A stretch of DNA of 54,911 bases, counting the filler, from Catajapyx aquilonaris (lineage: Eukaryota): NCBI GenBank assembly GCA_000934665.2. It is 2 parts of 2 records of this genome, joined end to end, with 100 filler letters (N's around TTAATTAATTAA, not from the genome) between each part and the next. Parts side by side here need not be neighbours in the genome. Positions count along the whole stretch, not along the records: positions 1 to 27,560 come from JYFJ02005084.1; 1 more part is not named here. One strand, 5' to 3'. The first letter of the stretch is position 1. The number at the start of each line of letters is the position of its first letter. The position numbers were made by a program, and so were the translations under genes. The notes below the pieces were generated by a model that was not told where the DNA came from, did no database searches, and saw only the letters and a program-made list of their open reading frames with translations. This document shows, piece after piece, positions 3,872 through 52,614 of this stretch.

Positions 3872-4779
3872 CGAGGGTGGTTCAGTAAATAACCTTACGA
3901 GTTGATTTACAAATTTGTACTATACATTATGTGAACTATTCTTGCTGTAGGTGGTACGGCCATTCGTGTCGTAGGTATGGAGCATTTCAGATCCACCATG
4001 TGACACCAGGTAGTCACGTGACAGCTATTTGAAGATGGCGGCCCCACTGTAGGTGTGCACCAGAGAAGAGCAGTTGGATTTTGGGGAAGACGAGAGTCGC
4101 CATTCTTTGCTGGAATGTTTAGTTCTGGCTGGAAGTGATGCACCCAGCATTCATCGCCAGTCACTATACGACCCAAAAAGTCTTCTTCCTCCTCCTCGTA
4201 ATGTCTGAGAAGCTTTGCACACGCATCGACACACAGTTCCTTCAATTCATGCGTCAATTGCCTGGGAACCCATCTGGCCGACACTTTTTTGTATCTCAGG
4301 TGCTCATGTATGATGACCTCAACTGACCCAACACTCCCATCATTCACACTGATGCATTGGTCTTGACAAATAAGCACATCTGCGGCCGCTACAGTCTCGT
4401 CCGTGACAGCAGTGTGCGGGCGACCAGGTCGTCGGGTGTCCGGCACACTTGTCAAGCCTCCTGGGAACTTCCACGTCCATTCATACACCTGCTGCAGTGA
4501 TATGCAGGCACTACCATACTGGTCCTTCATCCGACTGTGAATGTCTGTGTTTCACACCTTCACTGGCAAGAAAACCGCTGCTCTTCTCTGGTACACACCT
4601 CCAGTGGGGCCGCCATCTTCAAATAGCTGTCACGTGACTACCTGGTGTCACATGGTGGATCTGAAACGCTCCATACCTACTACACGAATGGCCGTACCAC
4701 GTACAGCAAGAATAGTTCACATAATGTATAGTACAAATTTGTAAATCAACTCGTACGGTTATTTACTGAACCACCCTCG
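3872..4779 (-). mobile_element. Non-autonomous mariner derivative with ~202-bp inverted arms (two 5' ends) and truncated transposase
   Basis: TA|CGAGGGTGGTTCAGTAAATAACC ... GGTTATTTACTGAACCACCCTCG|TA. Arms 3872-4073 and 4578-4779. Minus-strand remnant has RPGRP, WVPRQL and IVTGDECWVHHF (first catalytic D); the C-terminal half is missing. Confidence 0.93.
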
Positions 4780-15761: not shown

Positions 15762-16374
15762 TTAATGTGGGCGTACACGTTTTCATGTTTAAATATACCG
15801 TATTCAGTCAGCGAGTAAATACGTACACATTTCCTTGAGGGTTATTAGTGTATTTCAATTTAATGTGCATGATTTTAAAAGGTTAGGTTTCTAAAGGTTG
15901 CCCATTATTGCACTCCAAGTAGGCTAAGTCATTTTTGCACGCCAGACTTTCATCTGGAGTGCAAACTTTGCACCGGCCTGGACAAAATTTTTATGATTCG
16001 ACTCCTATAGCATTAGATTAATAAACTTCCTACAGTATCCATAAAAGTACAACAGAATGAGGCGTTTCCACATGTCGATCAATCGGTGAGAGACAACGGC
16101 GGGTGAAAAAAATATTCATATTATAGGATCACATAAAATGTCCTTTAATAGACTATTGCATCTTCCTCCTCCCCATCATGTTTTATATCGTAAAAATAGA
16201 GAACCCATATGCACAACACTCCTATACAAGTTGCATTTCAGTCATCAGTCATGTGTTCTCATCCGTCCCATCACCACTGGGACATATCACCATTTTTGTT
16301 GCCATCCGATTGCGGTCGCGTGGAGTCAGTCCAGTGTGACGTTCATTTATAAGGTAGGTCTATATATGTTACTA

Positions 16375-16469
16375 CTACTTTTTCTTGTTCTTCTGCTTCT
16401 TCATCTTCTTCTCTTCCCTTTTTCTCTCCTTCTCCCGCAGGTTCTTGATAAGTTTGTATGAGAAGTATC
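16375..16469 (-). CDS. Exon 2 (last) of an 81-aa single-pass membrane protein: (G)YFSYKLIKNLREKERKREEKKMKKQKNKKK*
   Basis: Acceptor ATTCTTTTTGCAG, phase 1 matching exon 1, stop TAG TAG TAA, ATTAAA downstream (16149-16144). Confidence 0.88.
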
Positions 16470-16785
16470 CTGCAAAAAGAATAATCCACTAAAGTCATGG
16501 TTGAAATCGCATATTGTGTGGGATATCTTTTACAGCTCGTACGATTGCAACATCAGTTCCTGTAATGATAGTGGGATCGTTTAAAAGGTCCTCTGCGTGA
16601 TGTATTTTGTGCATGTGTACAATCGGAGTAGCCCCAATCAGCTAAAAATATATAACGCCTTATGAATGCCTGTACTATATTCCAATTTATATGGCTATGG
16701 GGTGTTTATTACTAGTAGGTCCAACGGCAGTCAGCAACGGCAGTCAGCAAAACAAGTCAAAAATGTAGCCCTGAGAAATGTCGAA

Positions 16786-17372
16786 GGACCAACTGGTTAC
16801 GTGGTAGACGACCAGAAACACTGGGCTGCCCACAAACACACGCGGCTACACACACCGCACCTCTTTATAGGAAGATTCCCTGACAGAATGATGGACCCAC
16901 TCACCTTACAATAGTTGCCTAGGGAGCAGGATATGAGACGATAATATTATTATTATTATGACTGCGGAAGAGGCCGTCCCGCAAAATAGCATCCTGCTCC
17001 CTAGGCAACTATTGGAGCTGAGCGGTTCCTCCTATACCAGGGAATCTCCCTACAAAGAGGCGTCGCGTCGTGTGTGTTTCCGCATGTGTCTAGGACTCCA
17101 GGGGCAGACCAGTGTATTGGGATTTGGGATCTCTTTAGTTATCGCTAATATAGTCCAATGTTGTTACTTCTGTCTCTGTGTAGCTTTTTCGCCCCCACGG
17201 CCCCACTGAGGTGCTCAATTACACCACCAGCTGCTGGACCACACTTGGGAATAACATGCGCAAAAAGCTACACAAACTATCAGCTTGAGGCGATATTAGC
17301 GATAACTACAAGGATCGACAAGGACCCAAACATTGGAACAGAATATATATAAGTTTGACGACATAACTACCT

Positions 17373-17435
<63 letters not shown>
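16786..17435. repeat. Cluster of short (TAA)n-tailed repeats in alternating orientation inside the small gene's intron (another copy ~35927-36080)
   Basis: CAATAGTTGCCTAGGGAGCAGGA on + at ~16909 and inverted at ~16990. TAGTTATCGCTAATAT / ATATTAGCGATAACTA form an inverted pair; (AAT)n at 17374-17435. Confidence 0.6.
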
Positions 17436-17436
<1 letters not shown>

Positions 17437-18338
17437 ATCCGTGCGAGAGAAAAAAATTCTGTATAAGGGGACGTACATGCTGAAATTGTATTGGCGCCAT
17501 TTTAAAACTGTACTGTTCCCGGTGCGCACTGCAGCAAAATTCCGAAACTTCGGTTTTGATTTTATGAACTCTTAGGTTCGCATTATTTTTATCAAGAAAT
17601 ACCCAGGAAGCCGAGGCACCACGCACATCACTGACGCACTTAATATGGAATGAGCCACGTTAAAATTACTATAAATACCAAGGGGTTAACCACTCGACTG
17701 TAAAGTGTACACTGGAGTACCAAAATTCAGGAGTACCTGGGAGTACCACTGCAGGTGTACAGTACACCGGAGTACCGAATGGTTAACCACTTGATAAATA
17801 CTGTATATCCACCAGAACTGTAACATTCACCCGGAACAACCTGCTTGTGATCCGGCGTTTGTCGGCCTCTCTTTTCAAAAATATTGCACAAAATAATCCT
17901 GCCCATTTTAAAAAGTTGCCCATGATTGTGAATCAGGCCACGAACAAACTCAGCTCATGCGTCAAGAGTAGAAAGCTGCAAACAAGATGCTATCCTAAGT
18001 TTAATATTGCATGTTTGCCAAATATATACTGTCCTTAGCTGTAAACAATATTTTCACGCAGGACTGAGACTGAACGACTTTATACAATATGAATTATACG
18101 CAAAGTCTGGATACAATAGTCATTAATTACTATCAAAAGATGATGAACCTTAACACGACTGCTGACATGAAAATGTGAAGCGAACATTAAGTTGCCATTG
18201 CAATACTGCTTTGAATAATGACGTGCATTTTCAAATGATACCGTATATCTGCAGGAGTTAGGGTTAGCCTCTATGAGTGGAAAATAATTAGCAAGAATTG
18301 TTGGTGAAGCCTTAACTGTGATTAGTGAGAGTAGATAC

Positions 18339-18489
18339 CTATGACCGAAGCGACGAGCAAGAAGGCCAAGAAGAAAAGTGGCCAACTGATGCTGGTTTGG
18401 GGTTTGAGGAAGGATTCCTTAAGTGTCTTCATCTGGTCTAGCACCTCCTCAGGGATTTCTCCCGTGGTGGGCTCATCCTCTGCGGCCAT
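18339..18489 (-). CDS. Exon 1 of the 81-aa membrane protein: MAAEDEPTTGEIPEEVLDQMKTLKESFLKPQTSISWPLFFLAFLLVASVI(G)
   Basis: Kozak context GCAGCCATGG, donor AG|GTATCT, hydrophobic segment continues into exon 2; 151+95=246 nt. Confidence 0.88.
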
Positions 18490-18830
18490 GGCTGCTGGTG
18501 CTACTACTGCTCTGAAGATGGAACAGCTGAGTGATTAGAACAGGACCAGCCAGCCAGCCAGCCAGCCAGCCAGTTCCGTTCCAACGCAACCCAGGTTGCC
18601 ACGTATTAGATGCCACATGGGCTTCTGAGCGCAGTTTATCTCCACTTTCCTTATCGGTTTATCTCGTAGTCACTACGTAGTAGGCAGCCTCACTCGGCCA
18701 GCTCTCTTGCTCGACCTCACTCACTCACTCACTACACTACACTACACTACACTACTTCTCTATACTAATGGCTGAAAGGAGAGAAAGTGGATGATGGGGA
18801 TAGGTTTTGCATCAGTGATTGCTGGGGAGG

Positions 18831-18892
<62 letters not shown>

Positions 18893-19684
18893 AACACCAC
18901 ATACCGTACTGTTATTTGCTGGGCTAGAACCAGGGAGTATGTCACCCATTATTTTTATTTATAGCGCTGTCATGCCTGGACACAATAGTACCGGTATTTC
19001 AGTCCTAATATAGGCCTACATGTGAAAACGAGCATGACCTACATGAGCTACTCCTCCAGGTGAAAAACTCACTCCGTTGGTTCGCCTTCTCTTTAATACG
19101 ACTTATTGCTGCTACAGTCATGTGCACCGGTGAAAGTCGGTCGCGATATGATCTCTTCCAGTGGCGTAATGTAGTCCTTGACGCCTACTTTCTGATGGTC
19201 ATGTCAGTTTTCTGCTAGACAAATAATAATATTACTAACAGTCCCGTCTGTACAGTTGTACAGTCTGTATAGTTTCGATATTTCTAACCCCTATATTTTT
19301 GACTTGCTTTGAGCCAACGAGTATGCCTACCATCAAACCGCTACCGCCACGGTAGCGGTTTGATCTGAAATTCACACTCACCCTCCTGTATAGTGCATGA
19401 TTGTGGCGAAGGTTATCAAGGAAGTGGACAAATTCCAGTTATGCAAACGACCTTGCTGTAGTTATGTCATCACCCTTCACTTGATATATCCCCTCTACCT
19501 ATTACTGTAGATTAGGGTGGAGCGAAAAAAACCAAAGTTGTCCGATTAAATCGCACGGGGTGTCAAAAGTTGTGTATTGACTAACAAGTATAGCACTGGT
19601 GAATTTTCAAATAATTTTCATACTTCTTCATTCCCCGCAAGAACCTTCAAGTTTCTCCATTATTGCGAGAAGAACACATGGCCA

Positions 19685-21574: not shown

Positions 21575-22070
21575 TACTGTGAAGTACTGTATCGCACATC
21601 ATGACAGGTGCCCCTCGTAGGCCTACCGCATGGCAATGGAGGAAGACGTTCTGGATATGGTAGCCATGAACCCATCGATCAGCACCTGTCATGATGTGCG
21701 ATGTAGTACTTCACAGTGTGTGGAGGATCATCATTGACGAAGGGCTGTACCCGTACGTCGTACCTTGTGCATAAGGTGCACGACATTCTTCCTACAGACT
21801 CCGCTCCGCGGGTGGAGTTCAGTCGCTGGTATCGGCAACGATGCGAGGCGGAAACAAGTTGTTACTTCGCCGAACGGGTGCTGTGGACAAATGAGGCATG
21901 TTTCACACATGACGTCCACACTTGCAGAAACGCTCATGTGTGGGCGTATGTGCTTGACAATTGACAATTGACATGCCTATGGGGTGGTATGGGCGCGTAG
22001 TAATCTGTCGGAAGAATGTCGTGCACCTTTGCACACGGTACGGCGTACGGGTACAGCCCTTCGTCATGGA

Positions 22071-23513
22071 CAAAGGTTAAGAAGGTCAGTACGGACCTGT
22101 TATCTGCCCTTCGCCCTTTCCTTTTGGCGGCCACCAGGTCTTACAGAACCACGCCCAGTCATTTGCTTTGTGTCCTTACTGGCACCCTGCCTCCAGCACT
22201 TCAGGCCAATGCCATTTGGGAGGCCCGTAGGACATCTCAAGCCGAAGCTGCACGGGGACTTGTGAGACTACCAGTTCCTATGAAGGACTCTCCTCCACCA
22301 TGGAGATGGGTGAGGCCCAACATCTGTACCTGGGAAGGGGCGCCTGCTGCAGTAGATCTTCTACTGTTCACGGACGGCTCGGTCATGAGGAGGGGAGTTG
22401 GAGGCGCTGTGGTGGTCATGGATGGCGAGGAGCAGGTCATCAACTACGAGAACACCCCTTTTACTGCATCAATCGGGATCTTTGACGTAGAGCTTGCCAT
22501 GATTGTTAGGGCCCTGGAGATTGCCATCTCTTCTGCACCGAGGAATTCGGTTTGGGTGATCTCTGATTCTATGTCGGCGCTTCAATCAGTGGTGAACCCC
22601 CGATCCTCTCACGGACTATAGTCCAATATGCACAGAGACTCTTGAGAGAAGCTAGCCAGGACATTAGTCTCCATTGGGTTAAAGCGCACCAGGGGACCCT
22701 AGGCAACGAACTGGACGATCAGGAGGCCAAGAAGGCCACGTTGCTTTCGGTGGGTCGCCGTTTCCTGCCGGAATCATCCCGGAGTATTCGTCGCCGTGAA
22801 TTCCGTACGGCGTTGGAAACCTGGCAACAGGGATGGGAGCGTTGTCGGAACGAGTGGTATTTTGGCTTCTTCCCGGCCGTATCCATCAACAGACACATAC
22901 ACGGCCACCTTGCCAGAATCATCTCAGGTCACGGGCCCTATAGAGCATATCTGCGTCGCTTTCACCTTGGAGAGTACAAGGAGAGTGGAGTTGACGAGGA
23001 GGAGGGGGACAGTGTGATTGCAGACCGCTGTCCGTGCAACGGAGGGGTGCAGTCTGCGAGGCACATCATTTGGGACTGTTCTCTTCCAGAGGTGACAGGG
23101 GCCCGACGGGATTTGCGTCGAACTTCGGTGTCCAAGGGGTTTGGCTGGCCCTGTTCCAGAGATGCGCTCGTTTCGGATCAGCTGCTCCCTACCTTCAACC
23201 AATTCTATGCCTGGTGGTGGATCACTTATTATCGCAGATGAATGCTGGTAGGGGTCGGAGACGACAACAGTATGAAGAGCATGATTCCTCCTGAACAGAA
23301 GAAGACGTACAGAAGAAGACGGACAGAAGAAGACGGACAGAAGAAGACGGCCTGGTGAGTGGTGAGCCTGCTGTTGTTAATTGTTGATTAATGTTGATTT
23401 GTTTTATGACCTATATGGCTTTATGTATGTTGAGGAGATTTGTTCATTTGAATAAATAGCGGGAAACGGGCTGTAGGACTTGAAAAGGTTAGGACAGCCC
23501 TCATCCCCTTTTC
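22071..23513 (+). mobile_element. 5'-truncated R1/LOA-like LINE with RNase H and CCHC knuckle (one frameshift near 22615)
   Basis: SYRTTP..VLTGTLP, RNase H motifs FTDGS / ELAMI / SDSMSAL / WVKAHQGTLGNE, CPC..HIIWDC. 14-bp tandem repeat in the 3' UTR, AATAAA at 23451, 17-bp TSD CAGCCCTTCGTCATGGA (22054-22070/23514-23530). Confidence 0.93.
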
Positions 23514-29551: not shown

Positions 29552-30001
<450 letters not shown>

Positions 30002-30714: not shown

Positions 30715-30852
30715 TAGAGCTTGGGTACAAGTGTCAGGGGGCTGATCAAGAGGTTGAAGTTCTTTTAGCCACAAAAAAAACTATTCAATCTTTTCATGAC
30801 ATTGGCATGTGAAAAATCCTTAACGACATGTACGAAGCGAGAGGATCTTTAT

Positions 30853-30984
30853 TCTTCTTCTTCTTCTTCTTCTTCTTCTTCTTCTTCTTCTTCTTCTTCT
30901 TCTTCTTCTTCTTCTTCTTCTTCTTCTTCTTCTTCTTGCCGCCGCTGCTGCTGCTGCTGCTACTACTACTACTACTATTATTAT
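30853..30984. repeat. Compound trinucleotide microsatellite (TTC)n(CCG)(CTG)n(CTA)n(TTA)n
   Basis: Read directly from the sequence. Confidence 0.95.
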
Positions 30985-31112
30985 ATTATTTTATATCATA
31001 TTATATTATTGGTAGGCCTATATTACTTATTGGCTATAAATTATTTTATTTTAGTGTCCTACGAACGTGCCCATAGGCACGTTTGTGATTCTCCTGCTTC
31101 TAATTATTCTAG

Positions 31113-31221
31113 GGACCAGATCAACCTAGCCGTTTTGTCTCTGAAGGAAAATGGCGACCTGGCACGGTTCCACAACAAATGGTGGTACGACCGGAGCGAG
31201 TGTCAGCATACCGACAAGCAG
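31113..31221 (+). CDS. GluRIA: AMPA-type receptor exon homologous to the flip/flop module: DQINLAVLSLKENGDLARFHNKWWYDRSECQHTDKQ
   Basis: Acceptor TTATTCTAG, phase 2 to 0, donor CAG|GTAAGA; NLAVL and NKWWYD..EC motifs. Confidence 0.96.
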
Positions 31222-32609: not shown

Positions 32610-35600
32610 TATAGTATGGATCAAATCTTTCAGATAGAGTAACTAAAAGTCTCGTTTAACTAAAATCATTATGTATAACATTCTCATATTCGTGCAAAGC
32701 AATACCAAAATTAAGTACTCATATACCGGTACATACAGTACATTGATTGTTTCCTACATTACATTAAAGGGACACTCCACTCAAAATACAAGTTGGGCTT
32801 TAAAAATCGGGCAAAAAATCCTTATTCCGAGAGTATAAGCAGTTTTTCTGAGAGACGAACGGTAAGGCCAGGACGAGAGGTCAGATTCGTAAAATAATAG
32901 TCTCCTGCGCAGCGAGTGGTGCCGAACCACAAGCCTGGACGGGGCTTTCTAGTAGCTACAAGTAACTGCTAATGACACGTCCCTCGCCTAGGCCTGTAGT
33001 GCGTGCTACACCTAATTGTTTAACAACAAAATGAGTAGGCTAATGTTGTAGCCTGGCATACACAAATAGTGCTTCAAATTGGAATTAGTAATTGAAACAG
33101 AGCCATTAGCACTCTTCTGGGCCCTAACACATATTAGCTGCTATTCTCAAACGCGTCGCGGTTATTCCATGACGGTGCAGTCCAGTGAATCTGTTCCGGG
33201 ACCGAATATCATGGAAAAAGCGAGTGCGCGACCTGATACGGAGGCTAACGAGGTAGTCAGGAGCCACAACGGTGCGGAGAAGGCATCACTTAGCTCCGAC
33301 GGGGGGAAAAGCACGTTGAGCACCTTTAATTCGCGCCATCCCCTTGTCTAGTTCCGCCCGATTCGCCTTCCTCTGGTGGAGTCGCCACCTGCGCCGAGCG
33401 CAGTTTTCGAACGACACACTTCCAGCTTTCACCCTGGCCTTGCCGTTCGTCTCTCATTGTCAGAAAAACTGATTATATCATCGGAATCAGGATTTTTTGT
33501 CCGATTTTTAGAACCCAACTTGTATTTTGAGTGGAGCTGCAGGACTCCGATCACAAGAGTGCCTGCCCTCGAGGACTATCCTAAAAAACCTGATAGATCA
33601 AAAAGGACAGAAAATGTGCCCATAACGAGGGACGAAACTAGTGAGCATATCGAGGTCTACGTTTCACCTGAAAGATACACACATTCTAAGATGGAGTTTG
33701 TGTTGCATTGGAAGGTACACCCAAGTGTTGGTCGTCTTTTGTCATTAGCCTGCCGACTTTTATCTCGATATTTTTTTAAACTCTAATTGTACTATCCTTT
33801 TGGGCCATTGATAGCCAGATAACACTGTATACATGTTTTACTGGATGGTTTTCCTTTTTATAAGCCCACGCAATGTCTTCCTAGCTTTGTTCCATATTCT
33901 TATCTCCAAAATGAATGTGTCCTGGATGGCATGACTTTCTTGCCCTATGGGGATGCTGATGGGTTGCAACGGACAGTTCAGCCCAGGAACCATGACAACA
34001 AAATAATAAAAGTAGATAAATGTAAAGTGTTGTTCTGAAAATTCACGTTGAAGTTTGAAATGACGCGGACATTAATCTGCGTAAAAATTTCAGTTACGGT
34101 ACACGTAGAGTAGGCCTACTAGTATATTATTACGTTGCCCTGATTCATGCTGCAGATAAGCCCCTGTCACCTTCATCTTGGTGCAGTTTGTCAAATTTCT
34201 GGATAAAATTATAATAAACTAAGTCATGTCACACAAAATGCGGTCAGTTAATCAGAACTACTGAAGATGCGCGCTTTAAATAATTGATGAAAAATTGATG
34301 AAAATACTGAATGAAATACAGTTCCACGTGAGGTGTATTTTTCGCCGGACATTATTTTTTCGACAGATCCAGCTGGGTTTCCAATTATATGTCAATTATT
34401 ACTGTAGGAGCTCATCCCATTTTTGAGTAATAAAATTGCTTCAAATATTGTAAGTTCAAACAATGTGCACTATGTCCAGCAAGGACAAAATCAACGATTA
34501 CGGATATTTTAATAGTAGAGGGTGCAAAGTTGATCTTACTTGTGCAAGTTTACAGTACTTACAATTTTGCATCCCAGCAACGTCGTCTGGCCTTCATATT
34601 CCATAACTTTTCAACTATCCTTATCATATTTATGGGCTTTGGATTTGCATATTTTTTATTCCAGAAATAGGATGTGTTGAAACAGGCAATATTCTTGTTC
34701 TGGATACCCACGGAATTACGCATTGTAATTTTTTTCATGACAGCTACATTAGTATTTATCAGAGGTGATTCAGGGATTCATTTGATAAGCCAGAGCTCAA
34801 GTGGTGCCTCCATCGATCCAGCCAGGAAGCTCCCGGAATCCCTGGATCGAATAGGCATTGTTGTGTGTGACGGCCTACTTTGCCGTGTTGACGGGCTTGC
34901 AAGCTGATAAATTGTGAGATTGGCCGTTACTTTGTTGGTGCGGCATCACCCTCCCCTACTTTCCCCAGCCTCTCCCCTACGCTAACCCACCACCACCACC
35001 TTCCTCCATCCAGCAAACTCCTTGCACATCTCTCTCGCTCTCTCTGGCGCTTGAATTAATTAGAGGTGGGCTTCACTCTGGGACTGCAGAAGGAGTTAAT
35101 TAGCTTATCAATCAGACCAGTGCTCGCATCCAAAGTCGGGCTTCACCCGCCTACCTACCTACCTACCTACCTACCTACCTACCTCCCCTCTCTCCCCTCC
35201 CTCCCTACCTCCTCCCCCCTTCTCATCCTACTTTCCCCAAACTGTAGCATCACCAAGAAGAGAAAATAATCAAGTGACAATATCGCGCTCGCTGGAGTAA
35301 TGCACACGTGCTTCAGTTGTGCTCATTTCTGCCTTGGGGGGAGGCATCCGCGTGAAGACCAGCCTTTATCACCACCCTTTGATGCGCTTCCCTCCCCTGA
35401 AGGAAGAAATAACAGAGCCGATTGTTCAGTGCTGCAAAAACCTAGTGTACAGGAGAATTTCTCTTCTTTGTTGTACTCCCGCCAAAAGAAACGTTGATGT
35501 TGCCAAAAGTTGGCTATGGGTAATATGGAAACGTCGAGATGATGCCTTACACCAATCCATTTTGCACACTTTGATGGCAAGGAGAACAAGGGTATTGAGT

Positions 35601-41966: not shown

Positions 41967-42101
41967 GAGGCTCAAAATGAGCTGTCCTTGGGCAACGTGG
42001 CAGGAATTTTCTACATTCTGATTGGTGGGTTGGTGTTGGCCATGGCCGTCGCACTCATGGAATTCTGCTACAAGTCCAGGCAAGAAGCCAAGCGTGCCAA
42101 G
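41967..42101 (+). CDS. GluRIA: AMPA-type receptor M4 exon: [45 protein letters not shown]
   Basis: Acceptor CTCGTTTTCACAG, phase 0-0, donor AAG|GTAAGC; LSL.NVAG.FYIL.GGL.LAM and EFCYKSR.EAKR motifs. Confidence 0.97.
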
Positions 42102-43094
42102 GTAAGCTAACTCAAATTTTCTACTTTGCATGTCTGAAGCTGTGTTCATCACGCCGATCGTGACCTTTTTCTTGCCATTTCAATCAATAGTAACATGAAG
42201 GTATACCGGTATCATAGGAAAAATTGCATAATATTTCAATAATGTTTATATCATGCTCTCAATAACACGCTGACTCCCAATATGCAACACTGCAACATGC
42301 AATTGATCAGCTTGCAACTTGTCAGTGGTTACATTGGGAGTGAAACTTTGGCCGCATAACTTTTTCGGTTGCAATTCTTTTGATGACAACAAGCAGCGTC
42401 ACGTCACTTCGGGGGGAAATCCATCCTTTTATGGTCCGGATTTATTTACAAAGGATGTAGCAGGCTCTATGGGAGGGTATCATCGGGCTCCGAAAAAGAG
42501 AACATCTGGAGACGATGGTGCCTACCTCATATTTCCCCCAAGGCAGCGAAATATTGGTTTTGACACCGAATCCCTTTCCTTTTGTGAGACACACAATTGA
42601 TTCCACTTCGATACCCTCCCGGATCGAGCGACGCACACAATATTTGCCAACAGGGACACCGATTCGCATTTAGGCACACCCTTCACATTACATTATGGAT
42701 AACAGATTTCCACCCATACCAACTCAGACGTCTTTGCTCTATTATTTTTTGGATTGTCATAATATTATTGACTTATTCATGCAATGTTGAAATGGCAATA
42801 CCTTCTGTTTGTTGTTGTTGTTGTTGTTGTGGGGAAATCAACGCTGCTATATTGACTGCTATAAGTTATATTGTTGTAATGACGTCAGACGTCATTTTGT
42901 ATCAAGAAATCGAGTTTGCAAAAATTATGCTACCAATTACTGGAATTATATTGGTAGGCCTAAATCTAGCAAAAGTACCATTTTGCATTTACATTCTGCG
43001 GGTGCATGGGTTAATATCAAATGGCCTAATTTTCACAGTCATAGGTAATAATAAATTATAGGCCCGCGGACTCTCACTGTCATCGACTTGAATA

Positions 43095-50235: not shown

Positions 50236-51153
50236 CGAGGGCGCGTCAATATAGAATGAGAAAGTTTTTTCACGTTTCACGTTGTGGACATACGGCGGAA
50301 AAACATTTTTTGAGGGGAATGGTCAGGTCTTGTAAGATTGGCTTTAAAAAATTGTGACCTTGTATGCGCATGTGTCAGATAGCATTGAGCCAAAGACGTA
50401 TGTATGGTGGGAATTCGCCTACCAAAAATGGAGTTTAGTTCGGGATAAGCAGTAGGCCTACGCTTCAGCGTCTGGTAGCGGAGTATGGCGACGCCTGCCT
50501 GAATACCATTATTACAGGTGTTTAGAGTTGGCTTCAGCACTACAATCCCGAATGCAAGTAGGCGAGCTAAGTCTGAAAATCACCCAGTTCTCCGACGCTG
50601 AAGAAGGCCGAGGTTGTTCGGTCGGCAGGAAAGGCAATGACCATTACCTTCTTCGAATCCCGGGAAATGGTTTACCAGTATGAAGTGCCCCTGCATACAA
50701 CAGTCACTGATAAGTATTACGTGACAGTTTTGAAGGTCCTGGACGAACACATCCGACGAAAGCTCCCTGAACTGCATCCTGCCTGCACCAGGATAATGTA
50801 TGACCACACGTTGCCAACGTTGTTGCCAAATATTTGACCCAACGAAACATCGAATATGTGCCATTCAGTCCGGACCTATCTCTCTGCACTGTTTTCTGTT
50901 CCCTTGTCTGAAATAGGTGCTGTGGGGCCACAGTTTTGGATCATCAACAGCCATTATGAAGAAGGCGGAGGCGGTTCTAAAGACGACGTCAAAAAACGGG
51001 TTCTAGCATGTCTTCCACGACTGCCAGAAATGTTGGGCCAAGTGCATACAACTCAATGAGAACTTTTTCGAAAAACACAATATCAACCTGGACCCTTCTT
51101 AATGTATTTCTTGAAAAATAAATTCTTTCTCATTCTTTATTGACTTGCCATCG
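50236..51153 (+). mobile_element. Internally deleted, decayed mariner element
   Basis: TA|CGAGGGCGCGTCAATATAGAATGAGAAAG ... CTTTCTCATTCTTTATTGACTTGCCATCG|TA; SAGKAMTITFF..YYVTVL..IRRKLP and PFSPDLS remnants. Confidence 0.88.
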
Positions 51154-51331
51154 TATATTTACTGATGCAGAGATTATACGCTTTCCATAATCATGATTGT
51201 GCAAAATATTTAATGGGTGGATGAAGGAATTAACAATTTACACATTGAAAAATACATATACTGTAAATGAAAATACGCAGCGTTTCGTTTAGTGTATTAC
51301 GCATGACTTTTTTTGCAATTGATCATTTCAG

Positions 51332-51406
51332 GTCTCCTTGGCTGACGCCATGAAAGCGAAAGCTCGTCTCACCATCGGCGGAGGAAGAGATTTCGAATCA
51401 GAGAGG
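51332..51406 (+). CDS. GluRIA: AMPA-type receptor C-tail exon: VSLADAMKAKARLTIGGGRDFESER
   Basis: Acceptor CATTTCAG, phase 0-0, donor AGG|GTATGT; resembles the GluA2-long/GluA4 tail motif (DAMRNKARLSI). Confidence 0.9.
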
Positions 51407-52614
51407 GTATGTACGAGCTACTTCATTGCCTTTTTTTCCCAAACGTGATGTGTCCAGCGGATTTTGAAATATTGTGGCTGGATAAAGGCCCACTTGCACA
51501 AACGCTACTCTAACCTACTTGTTAGATGTCCACACCACGTACAGTAGACCTTTCACGCAGGGTTCATGCTTCGTCCTTGAGGTTGGATGAAGAAGTAGGT
51601 CCGAAATATCAAGTGAAAAGCACGGAGGGATGCGACCGGTGGGGTGTCAAAGAAACGTGAGCACCAGCGTAACTGGCGTAGCGCCAGTGTGAATGGGTTA
51701 CTCAAGTGCCCATCGGAATATTTGTTTATTAAAGATTTGGCGGGACTTACCGAACGGACTTTTTACCTGGTTTTGCACGTAAGTGCAGTATGTCACACTC
51801 AAACAAAACGACTTATTCGCATACCGGTACATGTTTATGAGGTCTTATTAAAGTGACCGTATTTTACACCATTCTGCCGCCCTGGACTTACACCAAAAAA
51901 GGCTTCCAAGGGTAAAAGAGCAAGGGTAATAATTCTTTCAGTGCTGAATTTTCCAAAAATTTAGGTTTTCTTTGCCTTTACTGCAGTATAACAAATTTGA
52001 GTATAAGTACTGTAAATCAGTTATAAACAATATTATAACAAGAGTCGAGTGTACTAAAAATGCAGTGTGGTAAATTGAGGACAGCTGGAGAGGAAAAAGA
52101 GAATAAGAAAAAGGAGACTATACACTATATTGTTATTTTCATCACATTTTCCCTTCACATGACAAAGCCAGCAATGGTCGTTTCTTGTCTAACTGTAAGT
52201 CGGCTTAAGGGACAATAGACGATCGGAAAAAAGAAGCACCTTAATATTGGTATTGATGGAAGAATTTTTGCTGATAGGATTTTAGGAACATTTCTAAAAA
52301 TCTATACTGGCAGACAAAATTTTTGGGAATGTGCCTTTCCCTTACTAGGACTAATCGCAGTAACAAATGGCAACAAAATTGACAACAGCGTTTTTACGGC
52401 ATAAGAGTGAAGAATGTTTTATTTGTTATACATGTATTTGCGATAATACCTCATTAGCACATTAATATTTAGCATTTGGGCAAGTTGGGGTAAATGCGTA
52501 TATGGGTAAAGTGTATATTTACTTCCAATATACGGCACAAGGTGGCAGGAACTATCGAAAATCACGTAAATGTTCACGACGACTTCTGCCTACTCGGCTA
52601 AAAGTAGCACAGTC

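Follow-up and report, generated by a model that had tools for sequence, protein, structure and literature searches.

A spliced two-exon small gene of Catajapyx aquilonaris, on the strand opposite AMPA-type receptor exons, very probably encodes a single-pass membrane microprotein

Proteins of the SMIM15 family are about 70 residues long and consist of one helix followed by a Lys/Glu-rich tail. Many of the conserved animal microproteins that combine one helix with a charged tail are mitochondrial. Membrane proteins of the endoplasmic reticulum (ER), in contrast, can be retrieved by COPI through a KxKxx or KKxx signal, defined by Lys at position −3 and at −4 or −5 from a free C-terminus. It is also established that helices located near the C-terminus of a protein are inserted into the membrane post-translationally. 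With respect to genome organization, arthropods commonly have antisense genes nested inside long introns. Each of these systems offers a point of comparison for the locus described here.

The locus lies on the minus strand of a 54,911-nucleotide stretch of DNA from C. aquilonaris (assembly GCA_000934665.2), referred to here as the window, in which parts of two records are joined end to end with filler letters between them (positions 1–27,560 are from JYFJ02005084.1). It is a real, expressed and spliced two-exon small gene, of a kind that is ordinary for animals. The layout of SMIM15 recurs in its 81-residue product, a tiny protein whose predicted membrane helix (residues ~33–55) leads directly into a Lys/Glu-rich tail of 26 residues; unlike SMIM15, the N-terminal part is longer, acidic, and without a match to the family profile, PF15086. 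As in COPI dilysine membrane proteins of the ER, Lys occurs at −3 and −5 on a tail that is predicted to be cytosolic. Here, however, the motif sits within a tail that is 46% Lys, a composition from which Lys at both positions is expected ~0.21 of the time. The distance from helix to C-terminus fits that of tail-anchored proteins, whereas a net charge of +11 is unlike their short, weakly charged translocated tail. Finally, the gene is antisense to a receptor gene whose 5′ exons likely lie outside the window, as in host-nested gene pairs, but host exons are visible to one side of it only, and nesting in this case is inferred.

Coding exon 1 (18339–18489, minus strand) is 151 nt long and supplies 50 codons plus one base. 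It opens with the ATG at 18489–18487 in the context GCAGCC-ATG-G, with a purine at −3 and G at +4, and its 50-residue translation (P0001) covers the acidic N-terminus together with the greater part of the hydrophobic helix. The N-terminus is fixed, because an in-frame TAA at 18537–18535 precedes this ATG in the same exon. The intron (16470–18338, minus strand) is 1869 nt long, of the GT..AG type, and in phase 1. Its GT is found at 18338–18337 and its AG at 16471–16470; the donor reads ATAG before the cut and GTATCT after it, while the acceptor reads TTATTCTTTTTGCAG followed by G, with a pyrimidine-rich tract and CAG (16472–16470) at the 3′ end of the intron. Coding exon 2 (16375–16469, minus strand) completes a Gly codon that is split 1+2 over the junction, and then encodes 30 residues (P0002). 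These form the last part of the helix, followed by a tail rich in Lys, Arg and Glu (net charge +11) that finishes with K-N-K-K-K ahead of a TAG stop at 16377–16375. Joined by these coordinates, the two exons give an 81-codon frame on the minus strand. The start, splice sites, phase, stop and product of this gene model were all called correctly in the initial annotation, which had also described the gene as absent from the list of open reading frames. The latter description holds for the spliced frame, which a list of contiguous frames cannot show, but the 70-codon open frame of exon 1 is listed.

Evidence for the splice comes from run X1, the sole public run found to hold this DNA. X1 consists of 85,611 contigs (31.8 million letters), and its kind is not on record. 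One of its contigs, 1021 nt in length, covers 16000–16468 and 18338–18728 with 0 mismatches and omits exactly 1869 bases. With the cut moved by +1, the joint reads CT..AC on the plus strand, which equals GT..AG on the minus strand, at precisely the predicted borders. These splice-site dinucleotides assign the transcript to the minus strand. A separate X1 contig covers part of the intron (16542–16949). We infer that X1 is a transcriptome; were the joined form a DNA retrocopy, its origin would still be a spliced mRNA. The junction of 18339 with 16469, at which spliced reads had been proposed as the means of checking the model, is thus bridged by one contig. The splice is real, and the mRNA is spliced exactly as predicted.

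The mRNA is at least 1021 nt long (about 15839–18728 minus the 1869-nt intron). Its 5′ untranslated region (18490–18728, minus strand) extends at least 239 nt, to the end of the X1 contig. This end falls within a (CACTA)n tandem repeat (18718–18755), and position 18728 is probably an assembly break rather than a transcription start. Just 5′ of the contig end lie a (GA)32 microsatellite (18827–18890) and, still farther upstream with respect to the minus strand, the sequence TATAAATA (18944–18962). The small gene may actually start around 18827–18962. The main ATG is the second ATG of the transcript. The first, at 18618 and in a weak context, opens an upstream frame of 27 codons (18535–18618, minus strand) that is in frame with the main one and terminates at the TAA mentioned above, 45 nt before the main ATG.

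The 3′ untranslated region (15839–16374, minus strand; ~536 nt) lies under the contig from 16000 to 16374, while 15839–15999 was deduced from 161 further contig letters on the assumption of colinearity. A polyadenylation-type hexamer, ATTAAA, occurs at 15859–15864 on the minus strand, 20 nt before the deduced contig end. If the contig is colinear there, 15839 looks like the true 3′ end.

The intron contains a (TAA)n microsatellite (17374–17435), a set of nested inverted repeats (16860–17060) and a further repeat (17678–17745). In the nested set, inner arms of 24 nt (16909–16932 and 16991–17014) are 100% complementary, and outer arms of 23 nt (16860–16882 and 17038–17060) are 91% complementary. 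The segment 16860–17060 is a hairpin-forming, MITE-like element. At 17678–17745, which sits between the arms of another inverted repeat (I3), several unrelated X1 contigs with depths of 4 to 222 match only this segment before running into different sequence. The segment is a dispersed repeat that other transcripts also contain.

Computed charges and hydropathy bear out the architecture that had been read from the translation, namely an acidic N-terminus, one hydrophobic helix and a basic Lys/Glu tail. Residues 1–33 include eight acidic and three basic residues (net −5). Hydropathy averaged over 19 residues (Kyte-Doolittle) peaks at residues 33–51, with a mean of 2.07, and the hydrophobic run continues to ~55. 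The last 26 residues contain 12 Lys, three Arg and four Glu. No N-terminal signal-like segment is present in the 81-residue product. Taken at the level of its sequence, the product is very probably a single-pass membrane microprotein.

Several steps in the life of such a protein can be proposed. Since 26 residues follow the helix, the helix would still be in the ribosome at termination, and insertion would take place after release rather than co-translationally. The microprotein would thereby enter the membrane post-translationally. By the positive-inside rule alone, an N-lumenal/C-cytosolic topology is predicted, in which the acidic N-terminus would cross the membrane and the Lys-rich tail would stay in the cytosol (type III, N-out/C-in). 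The Lys residues at −3 and −5, which the initial annotation had pointed out, are indeed encoded by the translated exon 2. They constitute a formal match to the COPI retrieval signal, although KxKxx is a permissive motif that carries little information and is not diagnostic of retrieval. By these rules of thumb, residence in the ER or early secretory pathway, maintained by COPI retrieval through the C-terminal K-x-K-x-x, is a reasonable prediction and the one favored here. On the cytosolic face, the basic tail could contact acidic lipids, RNA or ribosomes.

Whether the frame encodes a protein at all has to be weighed against the view that the locus gives rise to a non-coding RNA that is spliced, runs antisense to the receptor gene and possibly comes from within one of its introns, the 81 codons then being a chance open frame without a functional protein. 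The frame is the longest on the sense strand of the transcript, but its length is not significant alone: when the 1021-nt transcript was shuffled 5000 times with its dinucleotides preserved, 354 of the shuffles contained an ATG-initiated frame of at least 81 codons. The 27-codon frame ahead of the main one and the lack of a homologue in searches with the first 50 residues (see below) are also in keeping with a non-coding RNA. Composition points firmly the other way. The GC content of third codon positions (GC3) is 0.70, versus 0.36 for the first two positions, a difference reached in only 8 of 19,102 random 243-nt segments of the window; a GC3 of at least 0.70 was reached in 2 of 19,203. For comparison, the four receptor exons of the same window have a GC3 of 0.64, and the small gene's intron has a GC content of 0.41. 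Likewise, AAG outnumbers AAA by 11:4 in the frame, opposite to the 29:62 of its untranslated regions and intron. The 81-codon frame thus has the codon-position composition of genuine exons of this genome. Moreover, the ATG context is good, the frame stays open through the splice junction, and the clean succession of acidic, hydrophobic and basic segments is typical of real membrane proteins. A non-coding locus is accordingly considered decidedly unlikely.

Two other readings accept the protein and place it differently. It could be a membrane microprotein of another organelle, for instance an accessory subunit or assembly factor of the mitochondrial inner membrane with its basic tail in the matrix, the terminal Lys residues then being a matter of composition. 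The frequency with which KxKxx arises by chance in such a tail is compatible with this reading, as is the mitochondrial location of many conserved microproteins of similar build. However, the acidic N-terminus is unlike a presequence, the long and very hydrophobic helix favors the ER, and the chains of solved respiratory and ATP-synthase complexes yielded no match at E up to 10, leaving a mitochondrial protein an improbable, though not negligible, candidate. A different topology would follow from tail-anchor-like insertion, with the N-terminus cytosolic and the C-terminus across the membrane, which would render the Lys tail lumenal and out of the reach of COPI. With 26 residues beyond the helix, the protein is close enough to its C-terminal end at this point for targeting to be forced into the post-translational, tail-anchor-like mode. 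Translocation of a tail of net +11 in preference to an N-terminal part of net −5 would, on the other hand, violate the positive-inside rule, which makes this arrangement very unlikely. Taken as a whole, the locus is best explained as a genuine two-exon coding gene for a single-pass microprotein of N-out/C-in topology that is subject to retrieval in the ER or early secretory pathway, and we consider this combined reading probable, if by no means assured.

The likeness to SMIM15, raised in the initial annotation without a family assignment, drew a single sub-threshold Pfam match, confined to the tail. In the Pfam scan, P0001 (50 aa) and P0002 (30 aa) were searched apart and not as one 81-residue chain. 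Residues 1–27 of P0002 align with profile positions 36–61 (of 68) of PF15086 (UPF0542, SMIM15) at E 0.18 and 12.1 bits. This was the only Pfam match of either half; it falls far below the gathering score of 27 and lies in the low-complexity tail. The first 50 residues, in contrast, have no Pfam match at E up to 10. It is conceivable, though at less than even odds, that the small gene is a very divergent member of SMIM15/UPF0542; otherwise, it may be lineage-restricted.

A homologue conserving both the helix and the basic tail, which had been anticipated for a genuine gene, was not found in protein searches made with the first 50 residues. A word-index search with P0001 returned 0 candidates, and comparison with 1.84 billion representative proteins revealed no true relative. 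The sole match in the latter, a 471-residue repeat protein with 22% identity, was rejected as spurious, its score being the sum of seven repeats. The collection includes many arthropod proteomes, and the blank therefore indicates either fast divergence or relatives that lack annotation, with the proviso that, in a database of that size, a 50-residue query is too short to pick up distant orthologues. In the ESM Atlas, P0001 scored 0.77 at best, against unnamed clusters, and the 31-residue tail gave no usable match. A sequence search of the PDB with both halves gave 0 matches at E up to 10. Within the window itself, the product otherwise matches only poly-Lys low-complexity frames. With respect to SMIM15, the portions available of the literature naming it describe no function for the protein, and those concerning SMIM15 together with Drosophila hold nothing relevant. 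Neither SMIM15 nor C5orf43 is named in the supplements of PMC9681215.

The neighboring AMPA-type receptor gene is represented by its last four coding exons, all on the plus strand. These were mapped by tblastn, for which five glutamate receptor 1-like proteins from arthropods served as queries, after GC3 ranking and a motif scan, and are described here relative to the 915-residue glutamate receptor 1-like protein of Ischnura elegans (P0007). An exon at 29627–29881 encodes a part of the ligand-binding S2 region and is 85% identical to residues 718–802. The end of S2 is encoded at 31090–31221 (aligning to residues 795–838), the fourth membrane helix at 41970–42104 (residues 841–885), and the C-terminus at 51329–51409 (residues 884–910). 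Together, the exons span 22 kb and are separated by introns of about 1.2, 10.7 and 9.2 kb. Directly upstream of the exon at 31090, a long tract rich in A/T homopolymers (30797–31073) translates to poly-Lys, poly-Phe or poly-Ser according to the frame.

The search for the remainder of the receptor was negative: with the same five receptors, tblastn found nothing credible for residues 1–717 in positions 1–29600. A scan of the window with a smaller set of six receptor motifs had yielded no genuine exon. Pfam recovered no glutamate-receptor family (E up to 0.01 or 0.001) among 125 open frames of at least 75 aa on both strands and 212 plus-strand frames of 45–74 aa. This last blank is uninformative, because two of the scanned frames hold real receptor exons, and the method is evidently too insensitive for short exons.

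Thus, the small gene (15839–18728) is on the strand opposite to the receptor, and 11 kb separate it from the first receptor exon found in the window, which lies downstream in plus-strand terms. It had been suggested that the gene lies antisense to the AMPA receptor exons and, provided that the scaffold is correct, within an intron. The orientation is as described, but the receptor exons occur on one side only (29627–51409). Since all four lie on that side, nesting needs exons for residues 1–717 to exist beyond the left edge of the window. For an intact receptor gene, 5′ exons to the left of the window are likely, and it is plausible in that event that a receptor intron, 29.6 kb or more in length, contains the small gene. 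By analogy with small single-pass auxiliaries of glutamate receptors, one could imagine a lineage-restricted ER protein that acts on AMPA-receptor assembly or export from within the receptor gene itself, but only the slimmest of chances is attached to this idea.

Remnants of mobile elements are scattered elsewhere in the window. For example, two adjacent open frames at 22004–23238 (plus strand), where the GC content of the window is highest (0.51), show sub-threshold matches to RNase H (E 0.0027 and 6e-05) and are probably a decayed retroelement. Transposase remnants include an HTH_32 domain at 3910–4551 (minus strand; E 0.0005) and a mariner-type Transposase_1 fragment at 50577–50834 (plus strand; E 0.00018), both below the Pfam cut-off. 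A weak NDUF_B6 match at 33070–33348 (E 0.0066) was rejected, as the frame is unlike NDUF_B6 on reading.

The small gene of C. aquilonaris illustrates that raw sequence, read with care, can reveal a genuine spliced gene of small size that is missed by lists of contiguous open frames, and one public assembly sufficed to confirm the splice. With its product, one more protein joins the common class of small single-pass membrane proteins. Should the location of the gene, beside the AMPA-receptor gene or within it, be conserved and functional, the case would gain weight. If the frame proves to be conserved across arthropods, SMIM15-type proteins would gain an invertebrate member to study.
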